A stretch of DNA of 64,000 nucleotides from a bacterium (GCA_021823685.1 JAKANL010000003.1:18189-82188); one strand, 5' to 3'; shown: positions 4,094 through 41,042, numbered from the stretch's first letter. Translations and numbers: made by a program. The notes: generated from the sequence alone by a model not told the origin.

Positions 4094-4134
4094 CAAGCGG
4101 TACCTCCTAAAACACAAATGGCCCTAAGCCTAAG

Positions 4135-4524
4135 TTAGGCTAATTCTACTTTCGCACCTGCAGCTTCCAACGTCTCCTTCATTTTTTTAGCTTCATCCTT
4201 AGGAGCAGCTTCGGCAATAACCGATGGCGCACCTTCAACCTGATTTTTGGCATCAGTCAAACTCAAACCGTTAACGACTGAGCGCAATGCCTTAATAACT
4301 TTAATTTTATCTGCGCCAGAATCTTTTAAGGTTACTTTGAATTCGGCCTTTTCTTCAACGGCGGCCGCAGGAGCACCCGCAGCTGGCGCAGCCACCGCTG
4401 CCGCGACCGGCATTGCAGCTGAAACACCAAATTCTTCTTCAAGCGCCTTAACCAAGGTAGCAAGATCTTTAACAGACATATCTGCTATTTGCTTAAGAAT
4501 TTCCTCTACACTTTTAGATGCCAT
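4135..4524 (-). CDS. rplL: 50S ribosomal protein L7/L12
   Basis: 129-aa ORF with Ala/Pro hinge and C-terminal ...[16 protein letters not shown]...[12 protein letters not shown]...[16 protein letters not shown], typical L7/L12; conserved position. Confidence 0.95.
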
Positions 4525-4557
4525 ATGAATTCTCCAAAAAATTAAATAATGACCAAC

Positions 4558-5073
4558 TCACGATTCTTTTTGTTTCTTCTCGGCGATTTGCGCCAAAACG
4601 ATTACCAAACGGCTCATCATAATATTTAACATGCCAACACAACGTGATATCGGCGCTTGCATAGTCCCTACCAGCTGGGCAAGCAACACTTCACGCGCAG
4701 GCAACGTTGCGATAAAACGTACCGTTTCCTTGTCGCAAACTTCATGCTCAAAATAACCACCGACTATTTCAAATTTTTCATTTTGTTCGGCAAATTGTTG
4801 CAATGTTTTCGCGATAGCCGTTGGTTCTTGCGCAGCAAATACTACCGCCCGTTGTTCCTTAAAATATGGGTCAAGCTCTTTGGTATCAAGAGCGCGTTTC
4901 AACAAACGCATTTTGACAACTTTAAAGCTACCACCCTTACTTCTCAGATCTTTGCGTAATTTTTGCAAAGCACTTACCGGCAACCCCTTATAGCCAACCA
5001 CATAGGCCGCGCTTGAAGCTCCGAATTGCTGTTTAAGCGTGCCTACCAAATCTTCTTTTTGCTGACGATTCAT
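4558..5073 (-). CDS. rplJ: 50S ribosomal protein L10
   Basis: 171-aa ORF MNRQQKEDLVGTLKQQF...; position between rplA and rplL; L10-like length and N-terminus. Confidence 0.92.
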   Translation of the reverse strand: MNRQQKEDLVGTLKQQFGASSAAYVVGYKGLPVSALQKLRKDLRSKGGSFKVVKMRLLKRALDTKELDPYFKEQRAVVFAAQEPTAIAKTLQQFAEQNEKFEIVGGYFEHEVCDKETVRFIATLPAREVLLAQLVGTMQAPISRCVGMLNIMMSRLVIVLAQIAEKKQKES

Positions 5074-5088
5074 ACTCGTTTCCCTGCC

Positions 5089-5790
5089 TTACACCTTAAA
5101 CGCGTCATCAAGCTCAACGAGCACGCCGGGCCCCATGGTTGAAGACACAATAACCTTTTTAACAAATCGCCCCTTTGCCGTTGCAGGACGAGAGGCAATC
5201 AATGCTTTCATAAACGCAACAAAATTGTCATGCAATTTTTGCTCGTCAAAAGAAACTTTACCAAGAGGCAAATGTACTAAGCCGCCACGATCACTCTTAA
5301 AGAAAGTTCGGCCACCCTTGAGATCTTTGATAATCGCCGTAACGTCAAAAGTCACGGTACCAGTCTTTTTATTAGGCAATAAGCCACGGGGCCCCAAAAT
5401 TTTTGCCAGACGCCCGATAACGCCCATTTGATCTGGCGTAGCAACCGCGCAATCAAAATCAAGCCAACCACCCTCAATTTTTTCGACCATATCTTCAACA
5501 CCGATATAGTCAGCGCCTGCCGCCGCGGCTTCGTCGGCATATTTACCTTTGGCGAAAACTACCACGCGCACTTTCTTGCCAATACCATGCGGATAAAGCA
5601 CTGATCCACGTACCGCCTGTTCACTCTTTTCTGGATCAATACCCAACGTCACGTCAACGCCAACCGTTTCATCAAATTTGGCGTGTGCCACTTTTTTGAC
5701 CAATCCAAGCGCTTGCTTAGAATCAACGGACGCAGGCATGGCTGCCAATTGCTCCATTGCGGCCTGATATTTCTTTCCTCGATCAGCCAT
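5089..5790 (-). CDS. rplA: 50S ribosomal protein L1
   Basis: 233-aa ORF ...KFDETVGVDVTLGIDP...VRGSVLYPHGIGK...PRGLLPNKKTGTVT..., typical L1 blocks. Confidence 0.95.
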   Translation of the reverse strand: MADRGKKYQAAMEQLAAMPASVDSKQALGLVKKVAHAKFDETVGVDVTLGIDPEKSEQAVRGSVLYPHGIGKKVRVVVFAKGKYADEAAAAGADYIGVEDMVEKIEGGWLDFDCAVATPDQMGVIGRLAKILGPRGLLPNKKTGTVTFDVTAIIKDLKGGRTFFKSDRGGLVHLPLGKVSFDEQKLHDNFVAFMKALIASRPATAKGRFVKKVIVSSTMGPGVLVELDDAFKV

Positions 5791-5809
5791 TGTGCATATC
5801 CTTACCAGT

Positions 5810-6235
5810 TTAATCTTTTACTTCGATGCCCATGCTGCGGGCACTTCCGGCGATAATTTTTTTTGCCTGTTCAATGTCGTGCGCGTTTAAGTCGGGCATT
5901 TTAATACGCGCTATTTCTTCCACATCTTTCCATGTGACGCGACCGACATACCCCGTGTGAACCGACGCTCCCTTTTCCACATTCGCCTTTTTTCGAATCA
6001 ATTCGCTGGCCGGCGGTGTTTTGCATACGAAATCAAACGTACGATCTTGATACACGGTAATGATAACCGGCACCGTCTGCCCCTTGCGATCTGCTGTGGC
6101 GGCATTAAACTTTTTGCAAAAATCCATAAGATTGACGCCATGTTGCCCTAACGCAGAGCCAACCGGTGGCGCCGGGTTAGCGCTTCCACCAGCAATCAGC
6201 AATTTTATATTTGCTTTAATCGGTTTTGTTGCCAT
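5810..6235 (-). CDS. rplK: 50S ribosomal protein L11
   Basis: 141-aa ORF ...[35 protein letters not shown]..., typical L11 N-terminal domain. Confidence 0.95.
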
Positions 6236-11894: not shown

Positions 11895-12521
11895 GTGAAA
11901 TATTTAGTTTTACTTTGTAGCTTATTTTTTAGTTGCAGTATTCATCCCGAAGGCTTTATTGCCGGCACCCCGGTTGCCACCGAGGGTGGATATGCTTCAA
12001 TCGAAGCACTCCAAGAAGGTGATGAAGTTCTTTCCTACGACCTAAATTGTAAATCTTGCATCAACCCGGTAATCTTTTCAATCAAAAGAAATACACCCTT
12101 GCTCGTAAAAATAACTCTTAATGACAACGAAGTTATTTTTGCTGCGCCCGACCAACCATTCATGTTATGGACGCCTCCAATCATGCCATGGACACCCTCA
12201 ACCCGTTGGGCTGTTGCCGCATCTTTGAAAGAAGGCGACCAACTTAAGGGAACGGGAATTCCAATCGTCAAAAACATTGAACTTATTGAATCTGAAGCAA
12301 AAATATATGCTATTCATGTAGCAAGTACCGGAAATTTTTGTGTATCAAGACACCATATCGTTGCACACACTTCTCGCCCAAATTTTGGAGCGGCGCTAGC
12401 AGCGGAAAGAGGACGTGCCACTATGGAAAATATTGCAACAATAACGGTCCTTGGCGCCACTGCGTTTGGCGGCGCATGGCTCGTCAAGCGAATGCTTACA
12501 AAAAAACATTCCGACGATTAA
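11895..12521 (+). CDS. Hint (Hedgehog/intein-like) domain protein with C-terminal TM segment
   Basis: GTG-start ORF. Signal-like MKYLVLLCSLFFSCS, then GFIAGTPVATEGGYASIEALQEGDEVLSYD ... IYAIHVASTGNFCVSRHHIVAHTS (Hint N- and C-terminal blocks; the first-residue Cys is replaced). Hydrophobic tail ITVLGATAFGGAWLV. Confidence 0.6.
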   Translation: MKYLVLLCSLFFSCSIHPEGFIAGTPVATEGGYASIEALQEGDEVLSYDLNCKSCINPVIFSIKRNTPLLVKITLNDNEVIFAAPDQPFMLWTPPIMPWTPSTRWAVAASLKEGDQLKGTGIPIVKNIELIESEAKIYAIHVASTGNFCVSRHHIVAHTSRPNFGAALAAERGRATMENIATITVLGATAFGGAWLVKRMLTKKHSDD

Positions 12522-22615: not shown

Positions 22616-23761
22616 TTAATTCGGCCTGGTCCCCTCGCCCAGGATAGTAAGATATCGCGCATACACAAATCGCCGCCCACGTTTTTTACCGGTAATTTCT
22701 TTCAAGATCCCGATTTTTTCAAATTGATTGATCAGATTTGAAGCCGCTTGATGAGAAAGCTTAAATTCACGCTGTACATCGCTAACACGTATTAACGGCG
22801 TATAAAAAAGCTTATCTAATAACATGATTGCAAGCGGTGATGATATCCTTCTTTTTCCAAGCAGCGCCTGATGTGTTTCGCGTAACTGTAGTATGCGTTT
22901 AATGTTTTCAGTAGCATCTTGGCATGTTTGGATAACGCCAACCAAAAAAAACTCTACCCACTGCTCATAATCGCCTTTTTCGCGTACAAGCGTAAGCCGA
23001 TCATAGTATTCTTGACGATTTTTTTTCAAATAATAACTCAAATACAAAAGAGGCTTTTTAAGAATGCCACGCCAATAAAGATAAAACGTGATAAGTAAGC
23101 GTCCCAACCGTCCGTTGCCGTCCAAAAAGGGGTGGATGGTTTCAAACTGATAGTGAATCAACGCGCAGTTGATCAGTTCCGGCATCACCGATTTTTTATG
23201 CATGTATACTTCAAGATCGCCCATGGCTTTTAACGCCTCAGCTGGCGTTGGCGGAACGTAACGAGCCGTTTTCATGGTACAGCCAGGAGCTCCGATCCAA
23301 TTTTGTATTTTTTTAAATTCGCCGGGTGTCTTTTCTGCGCCGCGTACACCCTTAAGCAAAATCGCATGCAACTCTTTGATAAGCTTCAGGCTCATAGGTA
23401 ATGAATCGAGTCGATCGATACCATAGTGAAGCGCTTTAATATAATTTACAACTTCGACAACATCATTGACGTTTTCAAGCTTGGCACCACTTTCGAATTC
23501 AAAGACGTCTTCAAGCGAGGCTTGCGTACCTTCGATCTGGGCGCTCAATAATGCTTCTTTTTTTACGTACATGGTAATAAAAAGATCGGTGTTGGGCAGG
23601 GCATAAGCCATACCGTCCAAACGTGCAAGATGGAGAGTCGCATCCCACAGAAGTTTTTGCATGTTCTCGTTAATATTAATCGCTGGATGCGGCGGCAAGG
23701 ATGTTGGTACAAAAGCCTTGAACCCAGCCGGTTGATTTACATAAATACCACTTCGATTCAT
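22616..23761 (-). CDS. Fic-family protein (AMPylase-type) with N-terminal inhibitory-helix motif and C-terminal wHTH
   Basis: 381 aa. Fic motif HPFLDGNGRLGRLL (HxFx[D/E]GNGRxxR). N-terminal SAQIEG fits (S/T)xxxE(G/N). The C-terminus looks like a winged helix. Confidence 0.9.
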   Translation of the reverse strand: MNRSGIYVNQPAGFKAFVPTSLPPHPAININENMQKLLWDATLHLARLDGMAYALPNTDLFITMYVKKEALLSAQIEGTQASLEDVFEFESGAKLENVNDVVEVVNYIKALHYGIDRLDSLPMSLKLIKELHAILLKGVRGAEKTPGEFKKIQNWIGAPGCTMKTARYVPPTPAEALKAMGDLEVYMHKKSVMPELINCALIHYQFETIHPFLDGNGRLGRLLITFYLYWRGILKKPLLYLSYYLKKNRQEYYDRLTLVREKGDYEQWVEFFLVGVIQTCQDATENIKRILQLRETHQALLGKRRISSPLAIMLLDKLFYTPLIRVSDVQREFKLSHQAASNLINQFEKIGILKEITGKKRGRRFVYARYLTILGEGTRPN

Positions 23762-28855: not shown

Positions 28856-29761
28856 TTAAGCCGCATGCTCTTTTGCCTGCGCAATTCTTCGCTCAAGCGC
28901 GGGCAGCAGCTCTTTTACATGAACTGCCGATGAAAGCCTCAGCATACGCTGGGTAATCGACAATCGATTATGCTGATCTTGCGCGCTCAGACGCTCAAAA
29001 TCAGGAAAATAGGTCTGCCAAAGCATGGTCAATGGCGGCATCGTATTCGAATGATCTTTGGCAAGATTAAAGTATTCTGAACACAGCCTAAGAAATGCTT
29101 GCTGCTCAGGCACGGGCCAGCAACTAATCGTATCATAGAGCACGCGCAACTGTGCCCGACGGTAATATTCATTGGCAACGCTCGCGCTCCCCAAACAAAC
29201 CATGTAAAGCCACAAATAGCCCGTATCTGGCAATTGAAAGCCAAGAGCGCGGTAATAGTTAAGCGCTACGTCGACGGGAATCTCAATGGCACAAGCAAGC
29301 ACAACCTTCCACAATGGCCAACGATCACCAGGCCCGAAGGCGGTCGCCGTTCCGGTGGCAATGGAGGCAAGCTGTGGAAACTCGGTGTTACCGCCCCACC
29401 ACACCTCAGTATTGATACCAAAAGTAGCCGTAGCCAGTAACGCCGTCTCCAACGCATTACGCGCTGGCTCACTCAGCCGCCACCATGCGCGGCTAACGCC
29501 TCTTCCGCACGATTGGCAGCCATGCCACAACCCAAGACACCAGCGAACTGGAGCCGCGTGCTGCTGCAGCACAACGGGGCGCTCTTCTTCCATTTGTTCG
29601 ATCGATTGCGCATCAGCAAGTAAATGGCTCGTTAATGCCACTTGACGATCACTCGACATACCAGCGAGCTGATTTATGAGGCCAACACACAAAAACGCGT
29701 ATAATAATTTTTTGCTCAACATGATAAACCTTTCTTCAACGACCGTTTTAACGTCTCGCAT
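28856..29761 (-). CDS. hypothetical secreted membrane protein (family member 2)
   Basis: 301-aa ORF; probable start at 29722 (MLSKKLLYAFLCVGLINQLAG). Central block ...SRAWWRLSEPARNALETALLATATFG...IEIPVDVALNYY... aligns with 31719-32753 (...DSWRGLSQGTRNTLVVSILLATTLA...IEVPVDVTTNWF...). Confidence 0.6.
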   Translation of the reverse strand: MRDVKTVVEERFIMLSKKLLYAFLCVGLINQLAGMSSDRQVALTSHLLADAQSIEQMEEERPVVLQQHAAPVRWCLGLWHGCQSCGRGVSRAWWRLSEPARNALETALLATATFGINTEVWWGGNTEFPQLASIATGTATAFGPGDRWPLWKVVLACAIEIPVDVALNYYRALGFQLPDTGYLWLYMVCLGSASVANEYYRRAQLRVLYDTISCWPVPEQQAFLRLCSEYFNLAKDHSNTMPPLTMLWQTYFPDFERLSAQDQHNRLSITQRMLRLSSAVHVKELLPALERRIAQAKEHAA

Positions 29762-31331
29762 GAACCGATAAATACCCAGGTTCTGGAGAATTTTTCGCTG
29801 TTCCCGATGAGCTCCCTGCCGAGCTCGTAGCGCCTTCAGCAGAAGGCGTAATCACGATTTGTGGCGCATCGGCACTGGTTAATCCACATGACTCTTTTTT
29901 AAGTACAATGTCGGACAAGTCTTGGTTCGCTGCTGCTAAATCAAGGCGTTGATCCACCATGAGCTTAATGCCAGCCTGCACAAGTTCGGCATATCGCACT
30001 CGCTCAACGTCACTCCAATTTTTAAAGTCACCAACAAAAACCAGGCAAATCGCCGACGTCATCGTAAAATCGATTTGACTAAGCGCTGGCACACGCGTCC
30101 CCTTAACAATCTCCAACAGATCTTGCGTGATAGGAGCTTGCTGAGCAAGCGCCTCAAATCCCAACGCACCACGAAACTTTGCGTAATGTGCAAAATCGTC
30201 AGTTGGATCGGAAAACTGTTGAATACGATTCAATAATTCGACGACAATTTTTAAATGATACCTTTGTCCCGTTGCATCTTGGCTTCCAAACGGATCCCAT
30301 ATACGCAAACAAGTATCATACAAAGCGCTGAGCGATTCTTTCCCATCGGTAGCAATAAACTTTTTCATCGATTCAGGAGTAGGGTCGCTTGGTAGCGCAT
30401 CAATAACGGTTTTGAGTTGTTCAAATGTTGTACCACTGTTGTATAGCTGGTCCAAACACCACACAAAAAGCTCGACAAAGTTTACCTGCATTTCCTGCGG
30501 GAAGCGCTGTATTTGAGGATCATTGGAGCAAAAGGCAACAACATCCTGCCAAAGCTCTTCCTGGGTCAATTGGCTATTTTGATGAACGCGTAAATAGGCG
30601 GCAAGCATATCAGCAAAGAGGTCCTTTTCAAAACCAGCATTGTAATAGGCATTGAAGGGAATGCGATAGCCGCGGCGAACACGCAATTCATTGAACATGA
30701 TCGCGACAGCCGTCGAAAGTGCATATAACGAGACTAGACCGGTTTTTCTGTATTCATTTTTAAGAGCATCAATCTGAGAACACATATATACGTCTCCGGC
30801 AATTACCCCGCTGCAAATAAGGAGCTTGAGCCAGAAATTATATCGATCAGTAATATTAGCCGCTGCTTTTCCCATCAAAATCGCGGCACTCATTGAGATA
30901 CCGCTGCGATTGACGGCATGCGCTAAAACGTTAGCACCCACTTGAGCGGTTGTTATCCCCAGCGTTAAAAGAACATCTTTTGCCCATCGCGGCAATTTTT
31001 GCACATATACCGAACAGCACCCGGGCTCTTCTTCGCGTACCCCGCCAGCCTGCCCAGCAACTGGGCTCATTGACGAACTGGCAGCGGCCGGCGCAGATGG
31101 CCCAGCGGGCGAACCAGAATCAGAAGACATCTCGCCCATTTCAACAGCGCAAGGCGCGGCTAAAAGCGATTGTTTGAGTTCTTTCTGACGTGCAATAACT
31201 AATTTTTCTTTGCCATCATCGCGCTCCATACCGATCAAAGGCATAAAGGCCAGACACAACATGGCGTATAAGACATGACGAGAATTCATAGTACCTCCAT
31301 TAAGTACTTCTTTAGCTACCATAATCCCCAT
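29748..31331 (-). CDS. hypothetical secreted membrane protein (family member 3, long C-terminal extension)
   Basis: 527-aa ORF. The N-terminus MGIMVAKEVLNGGTMNSRHVLYAMLCLAFMPLIGMER is near-identical to that of 31719-32753. Hydrophobic middle. No family recognised. Confidence 0.65.
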   Translation of the reverse strand: MGIMVAKEVLNGGTMNSRHVLYAMLCLAFMPLIGMERDDGKEKLVIARQKELKQSLLAAPCAVEMGEMSSDSGSPAGPSAPAAASSSMSPVAGQAGGVREEEPGCCSVYVQKLPRWAKDVLLTLGITTAQVGANVLAHAVNRSGISMSAAILMGKAAANITDRYNFWLKLLICSGVIAGDVYMCSQIDALKNEYRKTGLVSLYALSTAVAIMFNELRVRRGYRIPFNAYYNAGFEKDLFADMLAAYLRVHQNSQLTQEELWQDVVAFCSNDPQIQRFPQEMQVNFVELFVWCLDQLYNSGTTFEQLKTVIDALPSDPTPESMKKFIATDGKESLSALYDTCLRIWDPFGSQDATGQRYHLKIVVELLNRIQQFSDPTDDFAHYAKFRGALGFEALAQQAPITQDLLEIVKGTRVPALSQIDFTMTSAICLVFVGDFKNWSDVERVRYAELVQAGIKLMVDQRLDLAAANQDLSDIVLKKESCGLTSADAPQIVITPSAEGATSSAGSSSGTAKNSPEPGYLSVHARR

Positions 31332-31718: not shown

Positions 31719-32753
31719 TTAAACCGCTTGCGCAGATTGCGCTTTAACTAATTTTGCTTTCAATACTTCTTGAAGCTTTGGTATCGCACCTAGATCCCTC
31801 CACGCAATGACCTTTTCTACTTGAAGACTCGCGCGATCAAGATCACGGACTTCCCAGCCAAAAGCGCGCGCATCTTCTTGATAGAGTGAACGAATAGCGG
31901 CCACTCGTTGCGTAAGGGTTGCGGGTGTACGATCATCACGCTCAATCTTTTGGAGCGCATCAATTACTTTAGGCGCCACGCTTAAGGCCAAGGCCAATTC
32001 GCGCAATGTCCATCTGCGTGCTTCGCTCACCGCTTCGCGTTTATTTTTTTCAACCATTATGCTTGAAAGGCCAGTAAGTCCCATCGCCACAGCAAGAAAA
32101 CCAGTGTGCGGACAATGCATCTGCCCAGCGCGCGCTAAAAACCAATTAGTTGTCACGTCAACAGGCACTTCAATGCCAACCGCTAAGGCTTTGCCCCAAA
32201 AGGCATATTTTGCCAGTGGGCCATAACCCATAGCAACGCCCGTTGCGGCATGAATAAGCGCGGGCACCAACTCATTGCCCCCAAATGCATCCTCTGCCGA
32301 CGCTGCTAATGTGGTAGCTAAAAGTATTGAGACAACGAGGGTGTTTCGCGTTCCCTGCGATAAGCCGCGCCAGGAATCGGTGATATGGTTCCCGCACGAA
32401 TGCATACTTTCTCTGACACGCTGCCAGCAGCTTGGGCTTGGCCGAGCGGCATCACGATGCACCACGACAATCGGCGTTTTGGTCGGAGAAGATTCAACAA
32501 CGCTCGTATTAGGCATAGCTAAAGCGGCAGATGGTGCAGCAGCACCAGAACCCATGTCGCTCATTTCAACAGCAGGCGCTGCTAAAAGAGGCCTTCTAAA
32601 TTCGCTCGCCCAACCGGACTTTTTGCCCTTGCTATCGAAACGCTCCATGCCGATTAATGGCACAAAAGCCAGACAGAGCATGGCGTATAAGACGTGACGA
32701 GAATTCATCGAGCCTCCATTTATGAATACTTCTTTAGTTCCAATAATTCCCAT
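31719..32753 (-). CDS. hypothetical secreted membrane protein (family member 4)
   Basis: 344-aa ORF with N-terminus MGIIGTKEVFINGGSMNSRHVLYAMLCLAFVPLIGMER. Paralog of 28856-29761 and 29748-31331. The upstream ~130 nt are also duplicated. Confidence 0.65.
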   Translation of the reverse strand: MGIIGTKEVFINGGSMNSRHVLYAMLCLAFVPLIGMERFDSKGKKSGWASEFRRPLLAAPAVEMSDMGSGAAAPSAALAMPNTSVVESSPTKTPIVVVHRDAARPSPSCWQRVRESMHSCGNHITDSWRGLSQGTRNTLVVSILLATTLAASAEDAFGGNELVPALIHAATGVAMGYGPLAKYAFWGKALAVGIEVPVDVTTNWFLARAGQMHCPHTGFLAVAMGLTGLSSIMVEKNKREAVSEARRWTLRELALALSVAPKVIDALQKIERDDRTPATLTQRVAAIRSLYQEDARAFGWEVRDLDRASLQVEKVIAWRDLGAIPKLQEVLKAKLVKAQSAQAV

Positions 32754-33238: not shown

Positions 33239-33277
33239 CCGTGGGTTTTTATCACAGCATCTTTTTTTTGGAGAATT

Positions 33278-34435
33278 GTGGTGAAGTGGGCAGTAGTATT
33301 TGCGGCCTTAAGTACCGCCAAGTGTTTGTTGGGAGATGGATTTTGCGCAGGGACGCATGTTAAAACGCCTGGTGGTTATGCCGCGATTGAACAGATTAAA
33401 CAAAAAGATCTCATTATTGGTTTTGATGCACGGCTCGGCGTATGCGCACCTTGCATCGTAAATGCGATTAACAAAAAACGTGTGAATCAAGTTATTAGGC
33501 TGACCACTGGGGGGCAAGAGCTCTATGTTGGATGCCAGCAGCGATTTTTGTGCCTGAACCAAAGAAGAAATGATCTGAAGCGCTGGTTGATTTGGACAAA
33601 GGTGCGTGATCTTAAACGGGGTATGCGGCTATTGAGCGCGAATAAAATCAGCGTTTGTGTTGATACCGTTCAGCGTATGGCCAGGCCGATAGATGTATAT
33701 GAGTTAAGTGTAGCTGGGGCGCATACGTATATTGTAACTGAACATGATCTTGTTGCGCACAATGTCGCTCCCATTGTAATTCCCTTTGTTTATACCGTCG
33801 GAGAGGGCGTAACAATTGCCTGGGGAGCTGCGGCGGCGTTGCTTGGATATGCGACGATCCATCACGCTGTAGGAAACCGCTGTGATACGTCAGGATTATG
33901 CGGACCACACACGGTTGATGAAATACAAAATCATCAGGACAATTGGAGTCGCTTAGTCCGCGAGCGAACGATCAGCGCTGATCGTTCTAAACTGCACTTG
34001 TGCTATGGTGGCAGTAATGGAGGGCCAGATCGCAATAATAAGTCGCCATGTAATCCCAATAAGGGAAAAAATAAAAATCCTCAGCAGCCATCGGATCCGA
34101 ATAATGCGCGTAATAAAAATCAAAGGCAAGGGCCGAAAAATGTAAACTCAAGACAAGTTGCTGCCAAAGAACGTAAATTTAATACGATGGAAAGGGCGGA
34201 GGTTTTTCGGAAAGGTAAATTTAAGCAAGACTATAAAACGTGCAAAAACGGCCGTTATGTAAAAAAAACCGGTGTCGAAGGATTTGGGAAAAGAGCGCAA
34301 TATTTAGAGTGGGATAATTTTCATAAAGATATGGAAATGTATGATAAATTTGGCCGGCATCAAGGATGTATAGAGCCGATTACTGAAAAAATATATAAAC
34401 CAGCCGTACCTGGCCGAACGATTAATGTAAGGTAA
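33278..34435 (+). CDS. Hint-domain polymorphic toxin with colicin-E3-like 16S rRNase C-terminal domain
   Basis: 385 aa. Signal-like N-terminus, then Hint blocks GFCAGTHVKTPGGYAAIEQIKQKDLIIGFD ... YELSVAGAHTYIVTEHDLVAHN, then a hydrophobic segment and an Asn/Lys/Pro-rich linker. The C-terminus ...KRAQYLEWDNFHKDMEMYDKFGRHQGCIEPITEKIYKPAVPGRTINV aligns with the colicin E3 end ...KIYEWDSQHGELEGYRASDGQHLGSFDPKTGNQLKGPDPKRNIKKYL recalled from memory. The D, H and E of the catalytic WD..H...E string are retained. Confidence 0.8.
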   Translation: MVKWAVVFAALSTAKCLLGDGFCAGTHVKTPGGYAAIEQIKQKDLIIGFDARLGVCAPCIVNAINKKRVNQVIRLTTGGQELYVGCQQRFLCLNQRRNDLKRWLIWTKVRDLKRGMRLLSANKISVCVDTVQRMARPIDVYELSVAGAHTYIVTEHDLVAHNVAPIVIPFVYTVGEGVTIAWGAAAALLGYATIHHAVGNRCDTSGLCGPHTVDEIQNHQDNWSRLVRERTISADRSKLHLCYGGSNGGPDRNNKSPCNPNKGKNKNPQQPSDPNNARNKNQRQGPKNVNSRQVAAKERKFNTMERAEVFRKGKFKQDYKTCKNGRYVKKTGVEGFGKRAQYLEWDNFHKDMEMYDKFGRHQGCIEPITEKIYKPAVPGRTINVR

Positions 34436-34438
34436 TGT

Positions 34439-35647
34439 ATGAAGAAAATCGACATTCTGGATAAATTGTACAAAAAAATGATCACGCAGAGAGAGGCTGA
34501 GGCCATTTATGTAGACGTTTTTGATAAATTCAATCGAGGGATATTAAAAACTGATCCGGTAAAACTTTTATGTTTATCCCATAAAGAGAAAATTGCGATT
34601 CGGCTGCATGATATATCGCTTAAAGTCTTGGCAAAATGGCGGTATGAGGGTTGGCCAAAAACCTGCGCCATTTGCGATAAACCTGTGGCGATAGGAAAAG
34701 TTGATTGGTGCGTCTTTGAGCGAAAGAAAATTGGCGGTAAAATGCGCAGCGAGGTGGTTATGCATGGGGATTGTTACTCAGCAATGCCCACCCCGAAAAA
34801 GGCATCGCAAGATCTCTACGAGATTTTTGATCGAGCGTGTGCGAAGGCCTCTGATGAACGATTGATGCGCCTTTTAGCGCGATTTAAAAAAATGGATTAC
34901 CTTGCAGCTCCCATCATTTTTGATCTCATTTGTGCAAAAAGAATCAGAGTTCTTAAATTATTGCATGAGCAACACGTACCATTTTCTTATTTGGCTTCTT
35001 CTGGTGGTAACGCACTTCACGCCGCCTGTGGCATTTCAGGCAGCCTTGAGGCGGTAAAATTTTTAATCAAAAATAATATTCTTACGGATATTAATGCCGA
35101 ATGCGATGATGGAGAAACGCCATTTCTTTTGGCTGTGATGTACAATCACATGGATATTGTTGAGTATTTTTTTGAACATTTTACTCCGAATGTAACCATT
35201 TCCACACTTCATGGTGATACACCGCTTTCACTTGCCAAAAAAAATGGCAACACACTATTATACGCTCTTATCACAGCGCATTTGCCAGAAACAAGTACGC
35301 CGATTTTAAAATTAAGTAGAAATGAGCTCAAACACGCTTTCGAAGGTGTATTGGCCATATTAATCGACGACGACATAAAGGAAATTGAATTTCCGGACAG
35401 AGCAATCTATTTTTGTCGGATCTTGAACAAAAAAGATGAAAATGACGGCTCGCCCGAATCAAACATTGTTGGATCATTAAGCGAAGATATGGCATCGCTT
35501 AAAGAAAGTATACATGGTAAAAAAGGATGGTTTGAATTAGACATCGAACGCTTTGGAGCGATACTTCTTGCACTTGGTGCACGAGTAAAAAGTACATATC
35601 CCAAACGCAGAGCACGGGTGTCTGGGCGTAAGATTGACGTGAGATAA
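34439..35647 (+). CDS. ankyrin-repeat protein; candidate immunity partner of the E3-like toxin
   Basis: 402-aa ORF starting 3 nt after the toxin stop. Middle ANK repeats (GGNALHAACGISGSLEAVKFLIKNN...DGETPFLLAVMYNHMDIVEYFF...HGDTPLSLAKKNGNTLL). The N-terminal ~130 aa are unassigned and carry C..C/H..C pairs. Confidence 0.75.
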   Translation: MKKIDILDKLYKKMITQREAEAIYVDVFDKFNRGILKTDPVKLLCLSHKEKIAIRLHDISLKVLAKWRYEGWPKTCAICDKPVAIGKVDWCVFERKKIGGKMRSEVVMHGDCYSAMPTPKKASQDLYEIFDRACAKASDERLMRLLARFKKMDYLAAPIIFDLICAKRIRVLKLLHEQHVPFSYLASSGGNALHAACGISGSLEAVKFLIKNNILTDINAECDDGETPFLLAVMYNHMDIVEYFFEHFTPNVTISTLHGDTPLSLAKKNGNTLLYALITAHLPETSTPILKLSRNELKHAFEGVLAILIDDDIKEIEFPDRAIYFCRILNKKDENDGSPESNIVGSLSEDMASLKESIHGKKGWFELDIERFGAILLALGARVKSTYPKRRARVSGRKIDVR

Positions 35648-35799
35648 CGCGTGTTTTTTTGCGATAGGTTTGCCTTTTAACAAGTGTCGCCGCTTTAAAA
35701 TAATTTTTTGGCAAAACGTGATTTGATTAGAAATGATGGAATAAGTGATATTCCAAGAAAATTTGGTTCTGAAATGGGTTTATGTAAGGCGGGATAAGA

Positions 35800-36138: not shown

Positions 36139-37236
36139 ATGAATTTTCGTATTTTCTTTTTAGCGGCCGGCTTGTTTTTTGCTCCGGCGATGGGCATGTT
36201 TAAGTGTTGCATGTCCAGAAAACGTGCGGCCGATTATCACTCATTTGATTCGGCGACGCCATTAAGGGCCGAGCGTGCTGAACAGCCTCAGGCGAATATT
36301 ATTGTATCTACTCATGTCAAGCCTGATTTTACAAAAATGTTAGCCATTGTGAGAGCATTGTTCCCAAGAGCAGATACCCCTACAGCACTTAATTATGTAA
36401 AAATTCTAGCCTCGGGGCGGACTCAGCCTGTGCCAGTGTTTACTAAAGCGTTGATACCCTGCGAGCTCATATTTGGCAAATCGATTGCTGTTCGTTCTTC
36501 CGTTACTCACAACTATGGCAGCCCGGCGGTAAGCGCTGCGGCGTTGACCGCTGAGCAATGGAGAAAAATTGATATTGCTCTTGTGGAAGAGGGGAGAGAT
36601 GCCGCGTTGGCAATCATTATGAGTACCGGTGTCGATGTTGATGAAGCTGATCGCATACTTGTACAAATTGGCAAACAGCCACTCCGCGCACGATCAACCC
36701 CCCCACAAGCACATGCTGAAAGAAATTCTGACATAGAAAAATTAAATCAGCTTTATTCGGAAGGTTCGGCCGCTAAACCAGAAACGCGGGCATCCACTGC
36801 AAGGCGTGCGCCGTTGACTGCGGAGCAGTTGGCAAAAATTGAGGCTGCCCTCGCGAAAAATAACGCGGATGATGCGCTAGCCATTATTATGAGTGCTGGT
36901 ATCGGATTTGAGGAAGCTGACCGCATGCTTGCGCAAATAGGCAAAGAGCCAACTCGCACACCATCAATGCCGCTACGAGCACACGCTGGGGGAAGTTCAG
37001 GCATAGAAAGTGATCAGCTTTCTCGAGAAAGTTCGGCTGGCGGGTCCGAAACGCGGGCATCCACTGCAAGGCGTGCGCCACTGACTGCCGAGCAGCTAAC
37101 AAAAATTGAAGCGGCTCTCACTGAAAGTAGCGTAGACGCTGCATTGGCCGGCATTATGAACGCTGGCATCGAATTTGAAGAAGCTAACCGTATGCTTGTG
37201 CAAATGGGCAAAAAGTCGGTTCAGCCATTGTCATAG
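36139..37236 (+). CDS. hypothetical secreted protein with three ~75-aa tandem repeats
   Basis: 365 aa with signal-like MNFRIFFLAAGLFFAPAMG. Repeats LTAEQ(W/L).KI(D/E)-AL...DAALAIIMS.G...EEADR(I/M)L.QIGK occur three times (about 36535-36700, 36805-36950, 37085-37215). Confidence 0.6.
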   Translation: MNFRIFFLAAGLFFAPAMGMFKCCMSRKRAADYHSFDSATPLRAERAEQPQANIIVSTHVKPDFTKMLAIVRALFPRADTPTALNYVKILASGRTQPVPVFTKALIPCELIFGKSIAVRSSVTHNYGSPAVSAAALTAEQWRKIDIALVEEGRDAALAIIMSTGVDVDEADRILVQIGKQPLRARSTPPQAHAERNSDIEKLNQLYSEGSAAKPETRASTARRAPLTAEQLAKIEAALAKNNADDALAIIMSAGIGFEEADRMLAQIGKEPTRTPSMPLRAHAGGSSGIESDQLSRESSAGGSETRASTARRAPLTAEQLTKIEAALTESSVDAALAGIMNAGIEFEEANRMLVQMGKKSVQPLS

Positions 37237-37356: not shown

Positions 37357-37776
37357 TCAAGAAGCACTATTGGCGCTAAGAATACGCGTTATTTCTGCGT
37401 CATTATGTATCGCATAAACGCGGTAATCATCACCATCTTGCGTAATAAGTATTTTTGGCGGTTGTTGCGCGTAAACGGTTTTCCATTGCTCAAGAAGAGA
37501 AATGAATGACTGAACTGGAATTGAATATTCTTCATTCTCAGTTTCAGACCATTCATATGAGAGTTTAACTACCTTTCCATCCATTTCGTAGCACATGTCA
37601 TAAACCTGAACAAAACTTTCTTGTGGATTGCGTGCCCACGCAATAAAATCGTCGGCATCATATCTGACAATACCCCTCAAAAAATGCGCAGCAGCACAAA
37701 GCGATAACGAGGTTGCCTCGTTATCTTCAATGGTATAGCTTATGATTTCTGATTTTTTCAAAATAATGTAACTCAT
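37357..37776 (-). CDS. candidate immunity protein of the orphan EndoU module
   Basis: 139-aa ORF whose ATG abuts the stop of the orphan toxin module. The C-terminus ...SFISLLEQWKTVYAQQPPKILITQDGDDYRVYA distantly parallels ...LEKLIIDWLKLVESGAKEITIESQDDEHYTI of immunity copies 1-3. Confidence 0.55.
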   Translation of the reverse strand: MSYIILKKSEIISYTIEDNEATSLSLCAAAHFLRGIVRYDADDFIAWARNPQESFVQVYDMCYEMDGKVVKLSYEWSETENEEYSIPVQSFISLLEQWKTVYAQQPPKILITQDGDDYRVYAIHNDAEITRILSANSAS

Positions 37777-38229
37777 TTATACGACTGCCTTAAAATTTTC
37801 TTCCCAGGGATAAACCGTAATAACTTTACCGTTTCTAATGCATGTTACAATAACCATCCCATCATTTGTCTTCCCCATAAAAATTCCCGTCTTGCTCTCA
37901 TAGGAAATCTCATTATTCCATGATTCAACAATTTTTTTGGCGAGTCCATCCATGGTCCACTGCGACGGAAAAAGCGTAGCCTTTGGTTTTATAACATCGC
38001 CTATTTTTAATTTACATAAAACAGCTCCACTTGAGTGTACTTTTGGTTCGATCAGTTGAACTTTACCAGCTTTTTGCAATGCGCCATTCTGATCCCAGTG
38101 AAATCCAAAAATTTTAGTTTTGCGTTTGGCCGGATTATAGCGTACATCGGCAGCGAGGATGTGCCACAGATCAATGGATGCTATCTTAACGGGTAACTGA
38201 GGCTGCTGTGCAACAGTTATAACATGTGC
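37777..38229 (-). pseudogene. orphan EndoU-like toxin C-terminal module without a canonical start
   Basis: The frame is open from the TGA at 38232-38230 down to 37777 and reads AHVITVAQQPQLPVKIASIDLWHILAADVRYNPAKRKTKIFGFHWDQNGALQKAGKV...KATLFPSQWTMDGLAKKIVESW...GMVIVTCIRNGKVITVYPW. That is a complete divergent EndoU-type pattern. The only start-like codon is a TTG at 38079, inside the domain. Confidence 0.6.
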
Positions 38230-38241
38230 TCAAGTTAACCG

Positions 38242-38610
38242 CTATTTTCCCGTTATCGCGTAGTGCTCGTCATCCTGACTCTCGATGGTAATCTCTTTTG
38301 CGCCCGATGCGACGAGCTTGAGCCAGCCGATCAAAATCTTTTCAAGCTCACTTTCTTTGATGGTGAATGAGGGCCCATCTTCTTCGAATTCGTAACTTAG
38401 CTTTATATAACCATCATGGCGTTCAAGAGTAATAAGATTTCCTCCAGCAGAATCCCAATCTTTATTTTTTTGTAAGAACTCGAGGCTGTATTCGAGAAAA
38501 TCGGGGCAATCACCAACTAAAAATAGCATTAAAAATCCAAAGCCCGCTTCAGGCTCTTCTTTGGGTTTCCAATAGCCCGACTTACTTTCAAATAGAACCA
38601 TTTTTTTCAT
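38242..38610 (-). CDS. candidate cognate immunity protein (copy 2)
   Basis: 122-aa ORF with ATGA overlap with toxin copy 2. Its C-terminal half is near-identical to copies 1 and 3; its N-terminal half is diverged. Confidence 0.7.
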   Translation of the reverse strand: MKKMVLFESKSGYWKPKEEPEAGFGFLMLFLVGDCPDFLEYSLEFLQKNKDWDSAGGNLITLERHDGYIKLSYEFEEDGPSFTIKESELEKILIGWLKLVASGAKEITIESQDDEHYAITGK

Positions 38611-41042
38611 TTTTTTACTTTCTTCAATAAATCCGGATACGCCGTAATGATATTCTTACTCTTATCGATAATAATTTTTATTGCTTTTTGTTCAGTTTCG
38701 AGCCACCCAACCAGTACCTGTCTACCCGCTTCTGCTGGATAAATTTCCTTTATATTTCCATATGCCTCAAGAACTTTCTCAAAGACTTTTTCTGGCGGCC
38801 AGTCTGCTGGGAAAAATGATTTGGGAGTCGGTTTTTGCATTCCATATTTTGCCTCTTTAACAAAATAAAAACCACCACCATAATCAAGCTTGTTAGGCAA
38901 ACTAATCACATTATTTCGCTCAAGCACACATCGGTAATCATGGTGAAATCCCATCCATTTTTCAACAAGGCCACTTTTTTGATCAATTTTTCTGACGTCA
39001 AGCGCAATCAAATGGAGCGGTTGTGTAAAACATGCACCACCAATTTCCGGAATCGGTTTGCCATATCGCGCAATAATCGCTGCACGTTGTTGCTCCGGCA
39101 GGGCAAACACTTTGAGCAATTGCTGGGTACCCGGCGCGGGTAACGGCCCGGGAAAAGCGGTGGTAACGGTTGGTTTCTCAGGTACGGCTGGTTGCAAACC
39201 GGAAGAAACTGGCTTCGTCGGCTGAGCAAGCGGATTCTGCGGCTGTGACCCTGAAGAAGCTCCTGCTGGCTGGGTGGGTATTTTTTGAGCCGCCTGTTGC
39301 TCTTGCTTGAGCAGATTGCTGGCAAGCGATTTTTTCGGCGCATGGGCAAGCTCTTCGGCAAAGCCCTCGCCGATACTGGCTTGTGCATGAGCAAGGGCGA
39401 ATTCGCGCTGTGAGCCGGCAAGCGGCAAGCGGATTTTGGTGCCCGAGGCCCTGTCCGCCATCTTGTCCGCCATAGTCTTGACGACGGCGGAAGTCTTGAC
39501 GGCGGCGGAGGCTTTTGCCAGCGCGGGAAGTTTGTTAAGTGCTTGTGCGCTTTTGTTCAGAACGTTTGCCGATAGCGTTAAACATTTGGAAGCCAATACG
39601 CCTTCGGCAACAAACTGCGTACCGCCGGATACGCAATCACTGAACGTCATGAGAGGGTGTTGGGACTTAGCTTTGGCACACAATTCGTTGGCTGCTGCCT
39701 TGAGCATGGCATAAAGTTCAGCGCGCGTTTGGGCACTGCGTTGCTCATCATCGCCGAGCAAAATATCTGCCGTATATGCCACGCGTGCAATTGTTGCACC
39801 GAGAGTTTTCAGCGAGGCGAAAAGATTTTCGGCTGTTTGAAGGGGATGAACAACCATCTGCGCTGTTGAGCAGCCGGCACAGAGAGCTCCGTCAAGCGCG
39901 CTTGTGCCCAGTATGCCCAGAACTTCGTAATCGACCTGTGCTGTCGCTTTGGCCAGCGTAAAAAATTCTTGCACACTCTGCCACGCCGCATGCATAACGT
40001 CGGCCATAGCGTAACCGCCAGCAAGATTATTGCCGCGGTTAAACGCATCGGCACATTCGGCAAATTGCAGCGCAATATGCGCAATATGTTCTTGAACGAG
40101 CGAGCGTCGGATTTCGTGACTCTTTTGCGCCCATTGTTCAAAGACGGACCTGTATTCTTCGTGCAGTTCTACCTGCGCAGCGTTACCACGCAGGGGAAGA
40201 AGTGCAGCCGCTGGCATACCAGCTTTTGTAAGCTCAGTCCGTTCCTGCGCTGAAAGTTTTATGTTGCGCTCGTGCAATTGCCCCGGGTGATCAAGGGTTG
40301 CTTTGAGCGCACGAACGCGTTTATCGATTATTTGGTAACTGGTTGGATTAAGCGAACGGTTATCGAGCTGTGAACAGTAGTTTGTGTAGAGTTGTTTGGC
40401 CTGCCCTGCGGAGCCTTGGCAAAGCGGGGTTTGAGCAATACTGCTGTTTTGTTGGAGCATGTTTTTTGCCGCGATAGTTGTCTTAAAATGATTTTGAGCC
40501 TTTGCGCTCACTGTTGTGGTCTGAGCCGAATGCTCGAACTTCTCGTTCGGGGTCGACAGGCGAGCGGCCACCTTGGGAGCGCAGGGTTTCCAAAGGGGTT
40601 TACCCCCTTTGGCGTGGGGATTGGAAAGGGCCGAACGAGGGGTCCTTTCCGGCCTCCCGCGTAGGGGCAAAACTGAATTTGATATGGTAACGTTCTGCGT
40701 AGAATGGTACTCACAATGTCTCTGCGCGTTCTCGTACTCTTGGCAAGCCTGTATCCATCGTTGTTCGCGCATCTGCTCAATAATTTCAAAGTTTTCTGGC
40801 ATACTCTGATGGTCGGTTCGATATGATACGTCTATCTGTACAGGATTGTGGTACGTTAATGCGTCACTTGATCGAGGCAAACACATTCGTATAGTAGCCG
40901 ATTCTGGCCATTGAACGTGCAAAGCTTGCTCTTTGTGTTGTCTTAACAAAGCCGTCTGGGCAGCCAGCTTAATATCACGTGCTGGCAAATTACTTTGACA
41001 AGCAATACTTGTCAGAAAAATAACTACTCTCAATCGTTTCAC
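38607..41042 (-). CDS. Sec-signal polymorphic-toxin-like protein with EndoU-like RNase C-terminal domain (copy 2)
   Basis: 811 aa. GTG start after AGGGG. Signal-like MKRLRVVIFLTSIACQS. Central region near-identical to copy 1. C-terminus ...HLIALDVRKIDQKSGLVEKWMGFHHDY...KSFFPADWPPEKVFEKVLEAY...IKIIIDKSKNIITAYP. Confidence 0.75.
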   Translation of the reverse strand: MKRLRVVIFLTSIACQSNLPARDIKLAAQTALLRQHKEQALHVQWPESATIRMCLPRSSDALTYHNPVQIDVSYRTDHQSMPENFEIIEQMREQRWIQACQEYENAQRHCEYHSTQNVTISNSVLPLRGRPERTPRSALSNPHAKGGKPLWKPCAPKVAARLSTPNEKFEHSAQTTTVSAKAQNHFKTTIAAKNMLQQNSSIAQTPLCQGSAGQAKQLYTNYCSQLDNRSLNPTSYQIIDKRVRALKATLDHPGQLHERNIKLSAQERTELTKAGMPAAALLPLRGNAAQVELHEEYRSVFEQWAQKSHEIRRSLVQEHIAHIALQFAECADAFNRGNNLAGGYAMADVMHAAWQSVQEFFTLAKATAQVDYEVLGILGTSALDGALCAGCSTAQMVVHPLQTAENLFASLKTLGATIARVAYTADILLGDDEQRSAQTRAELYAMLKAAANELCAKAKSQHPLMTFSDCVSGGTQFVAEGVLASKCLTLSANVLNKSAQALNKLPALAKASAAVKTSAVVKTMADKMADRASGTKIRLPLAGSQREFALAHAQASIGEGFAEELAHAPKKSLASNLLKQEQQAAQKIPTQPAGASSGSQPQNPLAQPTKPVSSGLQPAVPEKPTVTTAFPGPLPAPGTQQLLKVFALPEQQRAAIIARYGKPIPEIGGACFTQPLHLIALDVRKIDQKSGLVEKWMGFHHDYRCVLERNNVISLPNKLDYGGGFYFVKEAKYGMQKPTPKSFFPADWPPEKVFEKVLEAYGNIKEIYPAEAGRQVLVGWLETEQKAIKIIIDKSKNIITAYPDLLKKVKK

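Follow-up and report, generated by a model that had tools for sequence, protein, structure and literature searches.

Ribonucleases of the colicin E3 class cut 16S rRNA between A1493 and G1494, a target site in the decoding centre that is universally conserved. Among polymorphic toxins, the corresponding tip (Tox-ColE3) has been described together with a HINT releasing peptidase, with delivery through Sec listed as 'T2SS' (type II secretion system), and ankyrin-repeat immunity domains (Imm-Ank) and polyimmunity proteins have been described as well, Imm-Ank being named among those most frequently joined to further immunity domains (Zhang et al. 2012, PMC3482391). [quoted passage not shown] Here we analyse a locus in a 64,000-nucleotide stretch of bacterial DNA (GCA_021823685.1, JAKANL010000003.1:18189-82188; hereafter the window), in which a gene for a 385-residue protein with a signal-peptide-like N terminus, a Hint domain and a colicin-E3-type tip is followed by a gene for a 402-residue ankyrin-repeat protein (Table 1). 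We consider it likely that the two genes constitute a compact, Sec-dependent polymorphic toxin–immunity module, with the 402-residue product acting as a polyimmunity protein, in a member of the Dependentiae.

The two open reading frames (ORFs) and the 3-nucleotide gap between them are exactly where a preliminary description of this DNA had placed them; the public-database form of the toxin (P0001) has 384 residues and starts at the second GTG, at 33281. The window is part of a bacterial chromosome, with 23S and 5S rRNA genes and five tRNA genes. Because its RadA protein is 59–63% identical to RadA of Candidatus Dependentiae/Babeliales metagenome-assembled genomes (MAGs), the source bacterium is assigned, on this sequence criterion, to the Dependentiae (TM6), a phylum whose members live as obligate intracellular parasites in protists. 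Two traits by which polymorphic toxins are recognized were found at the locus: a downstream gene in the immunity slot, and exchange of the tip and immunity gene as a cassette, with displaced and orphan modules.

The 385-residue protein and its family

The C terminus of the 385-residue protein had earlier been aligned with the catalytic end of colicin E3, and the profile search bore this out: Pfam 'Cytotoxic' (PF09000) matches residues 336–382 with 29.2 bits, against a cut-off of 22. The best PDB match of the tip alone is 1E44_B, and a profile of 32 tip sequences matches no PDB chains other than those of colicin E3 (1E44_B, E = 1.7e-7; residues 505–548 of 2B5U and 1JCH). The earlier alignment was also right about the spacing of the active-site Asp, His and Glu, since D346, H349 and E353 fall on D510, H513 and E517 of E3; H361 and R380 correspond to H526 and R545. 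This mapping fits the signature given for Tox-ColE3, 'R, Dxx+[HK], E, H', and the extra conserved His noted in the same paper (Zhang et al., PMC3482391). Across an alignment of 32 tip relatives, W-D-x-x-H-x-x-x-E and H-x-G are invariant and the Arg nearly so, whereas the N-terminal half of the tip (residues ~296–335, KERKFNTMERAEVFRKGKFKQDYK...) lies outside the Pfam alignment and is conserved solely within its own clade.

Apart from the proteins themselves, a word-indexed search of 5.8 billion proteins returned only one homologue of the toxin and one of the ankyrin protein. The tip family became visible because an exhaustive HMMER search was run with the tip alone (residues 296–385) against 1.84 billion representatives, which yielded 534 relatives; a scan of the GTDB representative genomes with the toxin alignment found no relative. 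Some 35 of the 150 highest-ranking tip clusters share the layout of the window protein, namely a signal peptide, a Hint domain without Cys1, the dipeptide 'HN', a Gly-rich hydrophobic motif, a low-complexity linker and an E3 tip, in proteins of 300–400 residues. One of these clusters includes NCBI records named 'hypothetical protein [Candidatus Dependentiae bacterium]', which is the only public annotation of its Dependentiae proteins. The N-terminal position of the Hint domain, remarked on earlier as unusual, is so relative to classical Rhs and CdiA toxins but is the rule in this sizeable family, and the architecture is accordingly not unique to the window. The hydrophobic segment is absent from the Rhs-type classical members P0116, P0118 and P0144; of these, P0144 alone has a visible Hint N terminus, and it carries Cys1.

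Residues 1–20 (MVKWAVVFAALSTAKCLLGD) have the character of a signal peptide, as had been noted from the sequence, and run directly into the Hint domain. Every relative has a short n-region rich in K and a hydrophobic h-region; the latter ends 0–6 residues ahead of Hint position 1, and the residues at −1 and −3 are often small. A lipoprotein reading of the 'STAKC' motif was ruled out from the sequence, a Lys at −1 being incompatible with a lipobox. The Hint assignment stands, with Pfam PT-HINT matching residues 28–154 (33.6 bits; curated cut-off, 27.7) and with the A-type BIL domain 2LWY as the best solved-structure match of residues 21–162 (E = 4e-5), and the domain does end in ...VAHN (His161–Asn162). 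The accompanying claim that the nucleophilic Cys is retained (GFCAGT) failed: alignment to 2LWY and 30 relatives puts Gly21 at canonical position 1, and Cys23 is position 3, where the closest homologues have V or I.

Position 1 is Gly in 16 relatives, Ser in 8 and Ala in 6, and Cys in none of the 30. The block-B His is replaced by Gln88 in the toxin, with Gln also present in 27 of the 30 relatives. The C-terminal His-Asn occurs in all 30, although these sequences had been anchored on HN. The +1 residue of the toxin is Val163, and no Cys, Ser or Thr occurs at +1 in the 40 relatives listed. Judged as an intein, the toxin Hint thus lacks both an N-terminal nucleophile (Cys or Ser) and the block-B T-x-x-H, and has the C-terminal His-Asn without a +1 Cys, Ser or Thr. 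Because the N-terminal nucleophile and the block-B His are lost and the His-Asn is kept, the domain would be capable at most of cleaving Asn162–Val163 by Asn cyclisation, with no thioester; because no Cys, Ser or Thr follows at +1, the outcome would be cleavage and not splicing. Intein splicing was ruled out on both counts, the missing Cys1 and the missing +1 nucleophile. The lost N-terminal reaction is plausibly replaced by signal peptidase; the stripped-down Hint domain itself apparently retains the C-terminal cleavage chemistry alone.

The hydrophobic segment and the Asn/Lys/Pro-rich linker reported behind the Hint domain are both present. Within the family, HN is followed by the motif F-x-P-...-G-x-S-x-x-F-G-x-G..., and the maximum Kyte–Doolittle value over 19 residues of the segment is 1.62 in the window toxin and 1.4–2.4 in the relatives, which is of transmembrane (TM) grade. 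Anchoring in the producer and entry through the target membrane are candidate roles for this conserved segment. Were the segment a stop-transfer anchor, the toxin would be tethered with its Hint domain in the periplasm and its linker and RNase inside the producer, with the ankyrin protein as a check; it would then act in the manner of a toxin–antitoxin, suicide or addiction module, or leave the cell only through lysis or in vesicles. Most relatives carry a K/R cluster C-terminal to the TM-grade segment, for which the positive-inside rule predicts this topology of periplasmic Hint and cytoplasmic toxin if the segment stops transfer. A tip-less paralogue in the window has the clean type-I layout of signal peptide, Hint, TM helix and KRMLTKK, and a tethered toxin would entail a strict need for an intracellular antidote. 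The window toxin itself, however, has a segment of borderline hydrophobicity and lacks the basic flank; a periplasmic autoprotease that sheds only itself has no obvious role; the tip family otherwise sits on Rhs, LXG-like and other delivery scaffolds; and cassette exchange and orphan modules (below) fit competitive toxins better. We therefore think tethering in the producer unlikely.

The 402-residue protein and the immunity slot

To place the ankyrin protein, 80 metagenome loci were collected through the tip pattern and the gene directly after each tip was extracted. An adjacent downstream ORF was present in 73 loci, and it encodes a DUF6980 protein in 55, a homologue of the N-domain of the ankyrin protein in 12, a stand-alone ankyrin protein in 2 and something other or unclear in 4. 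The DUF6980 proteins have ~100 residues with the pattern 'CC...REY.I...CPWCG' and lie behind the tip at a median gap of 16 nucleotides (for example, L012 1336–1632 and L023 4732–5022). DUF6980 is probably the main, previously unannotated immunity family of ColE3-type polymorphic toxins; no paper in the literature searched mentions it. In one locus (L013, 500–1467), the signal-peptide–Hint–E3 gene is apparently frameshifted, with Hint and tip in different frames, yet an intact DUF6980 gene follows, as would be expected if immunity genes persist longer than their toxins.

The ankyrin repeats reported in the downstream gene are confirmed by Ank_2 (77.7 bits, with repeats at residues ~170–270), and they are flanked by two further domains. 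The N-domain, described earlier as unassigned and Cys/His-containing, can now be placed in a family, albeit an unnamed one. In the 12 loci, the proteins directly after the tip have 98–157 residues and are homologous to residues 1–105 (phmmer E, 1e-22 to 3e-8). A profile of the family found 11 further stand-alone members (66–146 residues), none of them named; all four of those with genomic context directly follow an E3-tip protein, one of them in an Rhs-type (YD-shell) cassette. The family is thus associated with a position directly behind an E3-type tip in 16 of 16 loci, 12 tip-collected and 4 profile-found. Its signature is W-R-Y-x-G-W-P-x-x-C-x-x-C ... G-W ... H-I-x-C, and the AlphaFold (AF2) model of the N-domain, with a predicted local distance difference test (pLDDT) score of 91, has five helices and a β-hairpin.

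The N-domain family gave no match in Pfam, among PDB sequences or with Foldseek. DUF6980 and Imm45 were likewise absent, at E ≤ 1, from the 402-residue protein and from 15 members of the N-domain family. Kinship of the N-domain with DUF6980 was considered and rejected, hhalign giving a probability of 11% over the CxxC knuckle only, as was kinship with ImmE3, for which a profile comparison with an ImmE3 sequence gave 0.5%. Membership of the ankyrin protein in Cloacin_immun, Imm45 or DUF6980 was ruled out at E ≤ 1, and no ImmE3 chain appeared among the PDB matches. The N-domain is most likely, from its sequence relatives and their position, a previously undescribed candidate ColE3-immunity domain.

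Stand-alone ankyrin proteins of ~168 residues directly after tips in two other loci (L077 and L040) match residues 132–280 of the ankyrin protein (E = 1e-52 and 1e-43), and the C-domain, which gave no Pfam match, has a pLDDT of 30–45 in the full-length model. With such a composition, the best reading of the 402-residue protein is that of a polyimmunity fusion, which would include an Imm-Ank-type module. The suggestion that it represents a novel immunity type therefore gains support from profiles and from comparison, through the N-domain family in the immunity slot and the stand-alone ankyrin proteins.

Which module would neutralise the tip is a separate matter. It is possible, if doubtful, that the ankyrin repeats do so in the manner of Imm-Ank and that the N- and C-domains are spare immunity against the E3 toxins of other strains or unrelated toxins. 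In L040 and L077, stand-alone homologues of residues 132–280 are the sole gene in the immunity slot; a second copy of the N-domain and ankyrin repeats without a toxin is present in L003, the locus compared below; and polyimmunity proteins have been proposed to cover several toxins (PMC3482391). The N-domain family is nevertheless far commoner as the sole partner of an E3 tip (16 loci against 2), and all three modules are equally conserved. A neutralising role for the repeats would in any case be a sub-variant of the toxin–immunity module that we favour, and not its contradiction.

A more distant alternative makes the two proteins a host-directed effector pair, in which the toxin, once secreted by the intracellular bacterium, would cut the small-subunit rRNA of host cytosolic or mitochondrial ribosomes and the ankyrin protein would either do no more than protect the producer ahead of export or be a co-delivered host-targeting factor. 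Dependentiae are obligate intracellular parasites of protists, their ankyrin proteins are regarded as effectors, and the E3 target site is universally conserved. Endosymbionts, moreover, reuse polymorphic-toxin domains against their hosts (Zhang et al., PMC3482391). The host-directed toxins of endosymbionts, however, typically lack adjacent immunity genes (PMC3482391), whereas here the two genes are tightly coupled and inherited together. A signal peptide, which 78% of Chromulinavorax ankyrin proteins possess (Chromulinavorax being a cultured member of the Dependentiae), is missing from the 402-residue protein. The N-domain family also partners E3 tips in Rhs-type systems, in loci not assigned to Dependentiae; its loci with Rhs-type or other toxins outside the signal-peptide–Hint layout come from soil, gut and freshwater metagenomes. 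Cassette swapping, displaced stubs and the adjoining orphan EndoU modules, finally, are hallmarks of inter-bacterial conflict. These observations make the host-directed reading improbable; the missing signal peptide and the many Rhs-type or otherwise different loci with the N-domain family behind an E3 tip also speak against the earlier suggestion that the ankyrin protein is a co-delivered, host-directed factor.

Cassette boundaries and neighbouring genes

Close homologues of both the toxin and the ankyrin protein were found in only one other assembly, the metagenome locus L003 (Logan SRR22387874). Amino acid identity to L003 is 30% over the signal peptide and Hint domain and 29% over the hydrophobic segment and early linker, against 82% over the tip and 83% over the ankyrin protein. 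At the nucleotide level, homology (82%) is limited to 34022–35653. It starts abruptly inside the linker (residue ~249, ...GGPDRNN...) and ends six bases beyond the stop codon of the ankyrin gene, just past a terminator-like hairpin. This hairpin is the sole item noted in promoter and terminator scans of the locus, whose counts did not exceed those of shuffled controls. The G+C content (GC) is 0.46–0.475 over 33278–34160 (signal peptide and Hint, hydrophobic segment and linker), compared with 0.375–0.41 over 34161–35647, so that it drops ~140 nucleotides downstream of the homology breakpoint; including the region of a 68-residue ORF (to 36138), it is 0.35–0.41, and the genome average is 0.463. 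The composition suggests that the cassette was acquired from a lower-GC relative.

The scaffold in L003 has its counterpart elsewhere in the window. The tip-less gene at 11895–12521 encodes a Hint domain that ends in His-Thr rather than His-Asn, followed by a TM helix and KRMLTKK. L003 733–1010 matches window 11895–12175, and L003 3036–3081 matches 12475–12520 at 89%; in other words, the 46 nucleotides behind the L003 ankyrin gene are the 3′ end of the tip-less gene. [quoted passage not shown] On this sequence comparison, the tip-less gene is the orthologous scaffold of the L003 toxin gene, at a locus without the cassette. Because homology is confined to 34022–35653, the scaffold differs in L003 and an old 3′ tail lies behind the L003 cassette, the linker end, tip and immunity gene form an insertion/deletion unit in signal-peptide–Hint–TM scaffold genes, with the old 3′ end displaced downstream. 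Insertion and deletion of a cassette with a displaced 3′ end is the classical mode by which polymorphic toxins diversify, and the pair of loci offers a clean natural example of it that is informative on how toxin tips move.

Against L003, the ratio of nonsynonymous to synonymous substitution (dN/dS) is 0.15 in the tip; in the ankyrin protein it is 0.19 over the N-domain, 0.11 over the repeats and 0.13 over the C-domain. Because these values indicate purifying selection, all parts of the tip–ankyrin cassette appear functional. They count against a decaying remnant, that is, a non-functional toxin gene retained by chance. The paralogue in the same genome lacks both tip and Asn, the relative in L013 is frameshifted, and public annotation offers no more than 'hypothetical protein', all of which would suit decay; the toxin ORF, however, is intact and has a ribosome-binding site, and the C-terminal residues of the Hint domain and the catalytic residues of the RNase are all present. 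We regard a remnant as very improbable.

L003 holds two further arrangements. An additional signal-peptide–Hint protein with no recognisable tip is encoded directly upstream of the toxin gene and overlaps it (L003 59–736). Downstream (3133–5822), genes for two paralogous unknown proteins (292 and 192 residues) are followed by a split second copy of the ankyrin protein that has no toxin, with the N-domain and ankyrin repeats in one protein of 217 residues and the C-domain in a separate gene of 187 residues (5259–5822).

Table 1 Features of the E3 locus, of the tip-less scaffold gene and of the neighbouring EndoU locus, in window coordinates
Feature	Position	Strand	Remarks
Tip-less signal-peptide–Hint–TM gene, 208 residues	11895..12521	+	Hint hidden Markov model (HMM) E = 1.7e-33; PT-HINT 33.3 bits
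GGAG ribosome-binding site	33270..33273	+	4 nucleotides before GTG 33278, 7 before GTG 33281; direct reading
Toxin ORF, 385 residues	33278..34435	+	GTG start; ORF calling
Signal-peptide-like N terminus, residues 1–20	33278..33337	+	Directly continuous with Hint
PT-HINT/bacterial-intein-like domain, residues 21–162	33338..33763	+	Pfam and 2LWY match
Gly-rich hydrophobic segment, residues 163–~199	33764..33874	+	Conserved; directly after predicted cleavage site
Low-complexity Asn/Lys/Pro-rich linker, residues 200–295	33875..34162	+	Includes cassette breakpoint near 34022
Colicin-E3-type cytotoxic rRNase tip, residues 296–385 and stop codon	34163..34435	+	PF09000
Catalytic codons of tip	D346 34313-15, H349 34322-24, E353 34334-36, H361 34358-60, R380 34415-17	+	Alignment to E3
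Ankyrin-protein ORF, 402 residues	34439..35647	+	Same frame as toxin; 3-nucleotide gap
N-domain of ankyrin protein, residues 1–115	34439..34783	+	Helical bundle and CxxC...HxxC β-hairpin
Ankyrin-repeat module, residues ~136–284	34844..35290	+	Ank_2; homologues in L077/L040
C-terminal domain, residues 285–402 and stop codon	35291..35647	+	Stand-alone homologue at L003 5259–5822
Terminator-like hairpin	35637..35652	+	Overlaps stop codon of ankyrin gene; consensus match only
ORF, 68 residues	35800..36006	+	No Pfam match
EndoU polymorphic-toxin locus	37357..41042	-	Convergent with E3 locus; EndoU_bacteria 28.1 and 30.4 bits, cut-off 25.3
Candidate immunity gene, 139 residues	37357-37776	-	Homologous to 122-residue one; abuts orphan EndoU tip
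Orphan EndoU tip, 100 residues	37777-38079	-	
Candidate immunity gene, 122 residues	38242-38610	-	4-nucleotide overlap with 811-residue EndoU gene
Signal-peptide protein, 811 residues, C-terminal EndoU_bacteria nuclease	38607-41042	-	

The E3 locus and the convergent EndoU locus together form a toxin island. Between them lies the 68-residue ORF (MKHLTEVQAFNAMIKFLELYYERTLSDDIGSLLGDL...), which has homologues after the stand-alone ankyrin gene in L077, after DUF6980 in L061 and, as a tandem duplicate, in a gene array in L095; it is a recurrent passenger of such toxin–immunity islands and perhaps an orphan immunity gene. The same interval contains, at 36139–37236 (plus strand), a gene for a signal-peptide protein of 365 residues with three internal repeats of ~70 residues (…RRAPLTAEQL.KIEAAL…A.AIIMSAGI.FEEADRMLAQIGK…) and no Pfam family. 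Upstream of the toxin, on the minus strand, 29748–31331 (527 residues) and 31719–32753 (344 residues) encode paralogues with a near-identical N terminus (M..GGxMNSRHVLYAMLCLAF.PLIGMER) and no Pfam family, which may represent a family of secreted or membrane proteins specific to this lineage. A Fic/DOC family protein (Fic_N and Fic; 22616–23761, minus strand) is a possible AMPylating effector or toxin, and a Fic gene is also found near an E3/N-domain cassette in L092.

The proposed module and its relation to known systems

In the toxin–immunity reading that we favour, the 385-residue preprotein would be routed to Sec by its N-terminal signal peptide and cut by signal peptidase next to Hint residue 1. 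Cyclisation of Asn162 would sever Asn162–Val163, as expected from intein and BIL chemistry, and free a fragment of ~223 residues (Val163–Arg385) comprising the hydrophobic segment, the flexible linker and the colicin-E3-type RNase. The Gly-rich segment would most likely mediate membrane insertion or translocation into the target, delivery being the weakest step of the scheme. From its homology and catalytic residues, the tip is predicted to cut small-subunit rRNA in the decoding centre and to inactivate ribosomes as colicin E3 does. In the producer, the 402-residue protein, presumably co-transcribed and cytoplasmic, would neutralise the toxin, most probably through its N-domain; it would consist of an unnamed ColE3-immunity domain, an Imm-Ank-type module and a third domain. 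The linker end, tip and immunity gene move as one cassette between paralogous signal-peptide–Hint–TM scaffold genes, as the comparison with L003 shows.

Several points weigh against this scheme. Export, cleavage, RNase activity and the binding of toxin to immunity protein are all predictions. The PF09000 match covers profile positions 33–79 of 80 only, which is the C-terminal half of the domain. As a Sec stop-transfer sequence, the segment behind the Hint domain would keep the toxin in the cytoplasm of the producer, in conflict with simple export. No tips other than E3 were found on the signal-peptide–Hint scaffold, on which only tip-less and frameshifted copies were seen, in loci that had themselves been collected through the tip. 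The usual partner of the signal-peptide–Hint members is DUF6980, not the N-domain family. Synteny and dN/dS, finally, rest on a single comparison, L003 being the only other genome with the exact cassette.

A bolder proposal, which we put forward tentatively and think less probable than not by some way, is that the signal peptide, the Hint domain without Cys1 and the Gly-rich TM segment make up a self-contained delivery device typical of Dependentiae, and that the N-domain family and DUF6980 are two new structural classes of ColE3 inhibitor. Signal peptidase would make the N-terminal cut, and the Hint domain would chaperone and then release a hydrophobic 'warhead carrier', which would insert in a foreign membrane and bring the rRNase across it without a dedicated secretion machine. 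The device would be aimed at co-infecting bacteria, or at host or mitochondrial ribosomes, inside the protist cell.

If the toxin–immunity module is what it seems, members of a phylum that is mostly uncultured carry bona fide immunity-paired polymorphic toxins, and one may ask which opponents such bacteria meet inside a protist; no paper in the literature searched links Dependentiae with polymorphic toxins. The analysis also offers a testable function for two unannotated families, the N-domain family and DUF6980, as candidate new classes of ribosome-cutter inhibitors unrelated to ImmE3.

Compared with colicin E3 and cloacin DF13 (PF09000; PDB 1E44, 1JCH, 2B5U, 4V5K), the C-terminal ~45 residues of the tip align with E3 505–548. 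With W-D-x-x-H-x-x-x-E, the second His and the Arg kept, the expected activity is the same, a cut in the decoding centre of the small-subunit rRNA. In its N-terminal half, in contrast, the window tip is clade-specific, and the immunity protein is unrelated to ImmE3. Colicin translocation and receptor domains are also absent (no Pfam match at E ≤ 1 in either protein), and there is neither a plasmid nor a lysis gene. A colicin proper, which is defined by those domains and by ImmE3-type immunity, was examined as a candidate and rejected, as neither was found.

Like the Tox-ColE3/HINT toxins, the window toxin combines a trafficking module, a HINT domain, a ColE3 tip and an immunity gene, and diversifies by cassette recombination. 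It differs from them in having no Rhs, FilH, MafB-N or LXG stalk, its HINT domain lying directly after the signal peptide and lacking Cys1 and the block-B His. HINT and tip are kept apart by a hydrophobic segment and a long linker, where HINT is otherwise found 'just prior to the toxin'; the immunity protein is neither Imm-Cloacin nor Imm45; and Dependentiae are absent from the phyla listed in PMC3482391. With MafB it shares dependence on a signal peptide, a Hint domain, a downstream immunity gene and orphan cassettes. MafB, however, has DUF1020 as its constant domain and motifs like VSGDF at the junction, whereas the constant region here is the Hint–TM scaffold itself; MafB membership was rejected for want of a DUF1020 match in the toxin. 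The C-terminal His-Asn without a +1 nucleophile is as in A-type BILs (2LWY), whose Cys1 and block-B T-x-x-H are replaced by Gly21 and Gln88. As in Imm-Ank and polyimmunity proteins, ankyrin repeats in the immunity slot are fused to another immunity-slot family. Imm-Ank has been linked to Tox-AHH (Zhang et al. 2012), whereas the partner tip here is Tox-ColE3, and the fusion partners are a family without a Pfam model and a third unknown domain.

The module is thus a variant within the known Sec/HINT polymorphic-toxin framework, which stays intact, and not a new type of system. Within that framework, the novelty lies in the placement of a Hint domain without Cys1 right behind a signal peptide and ahead of a conserved hydrophobic segment; in the fusion of an immunity-slot family, itself unnamed, with ankyrin repeats and a third domain; in the association of DUF6980 with E3 tips; and in the presence of recombining, immunity-paired toxin loci in Dependentiae.

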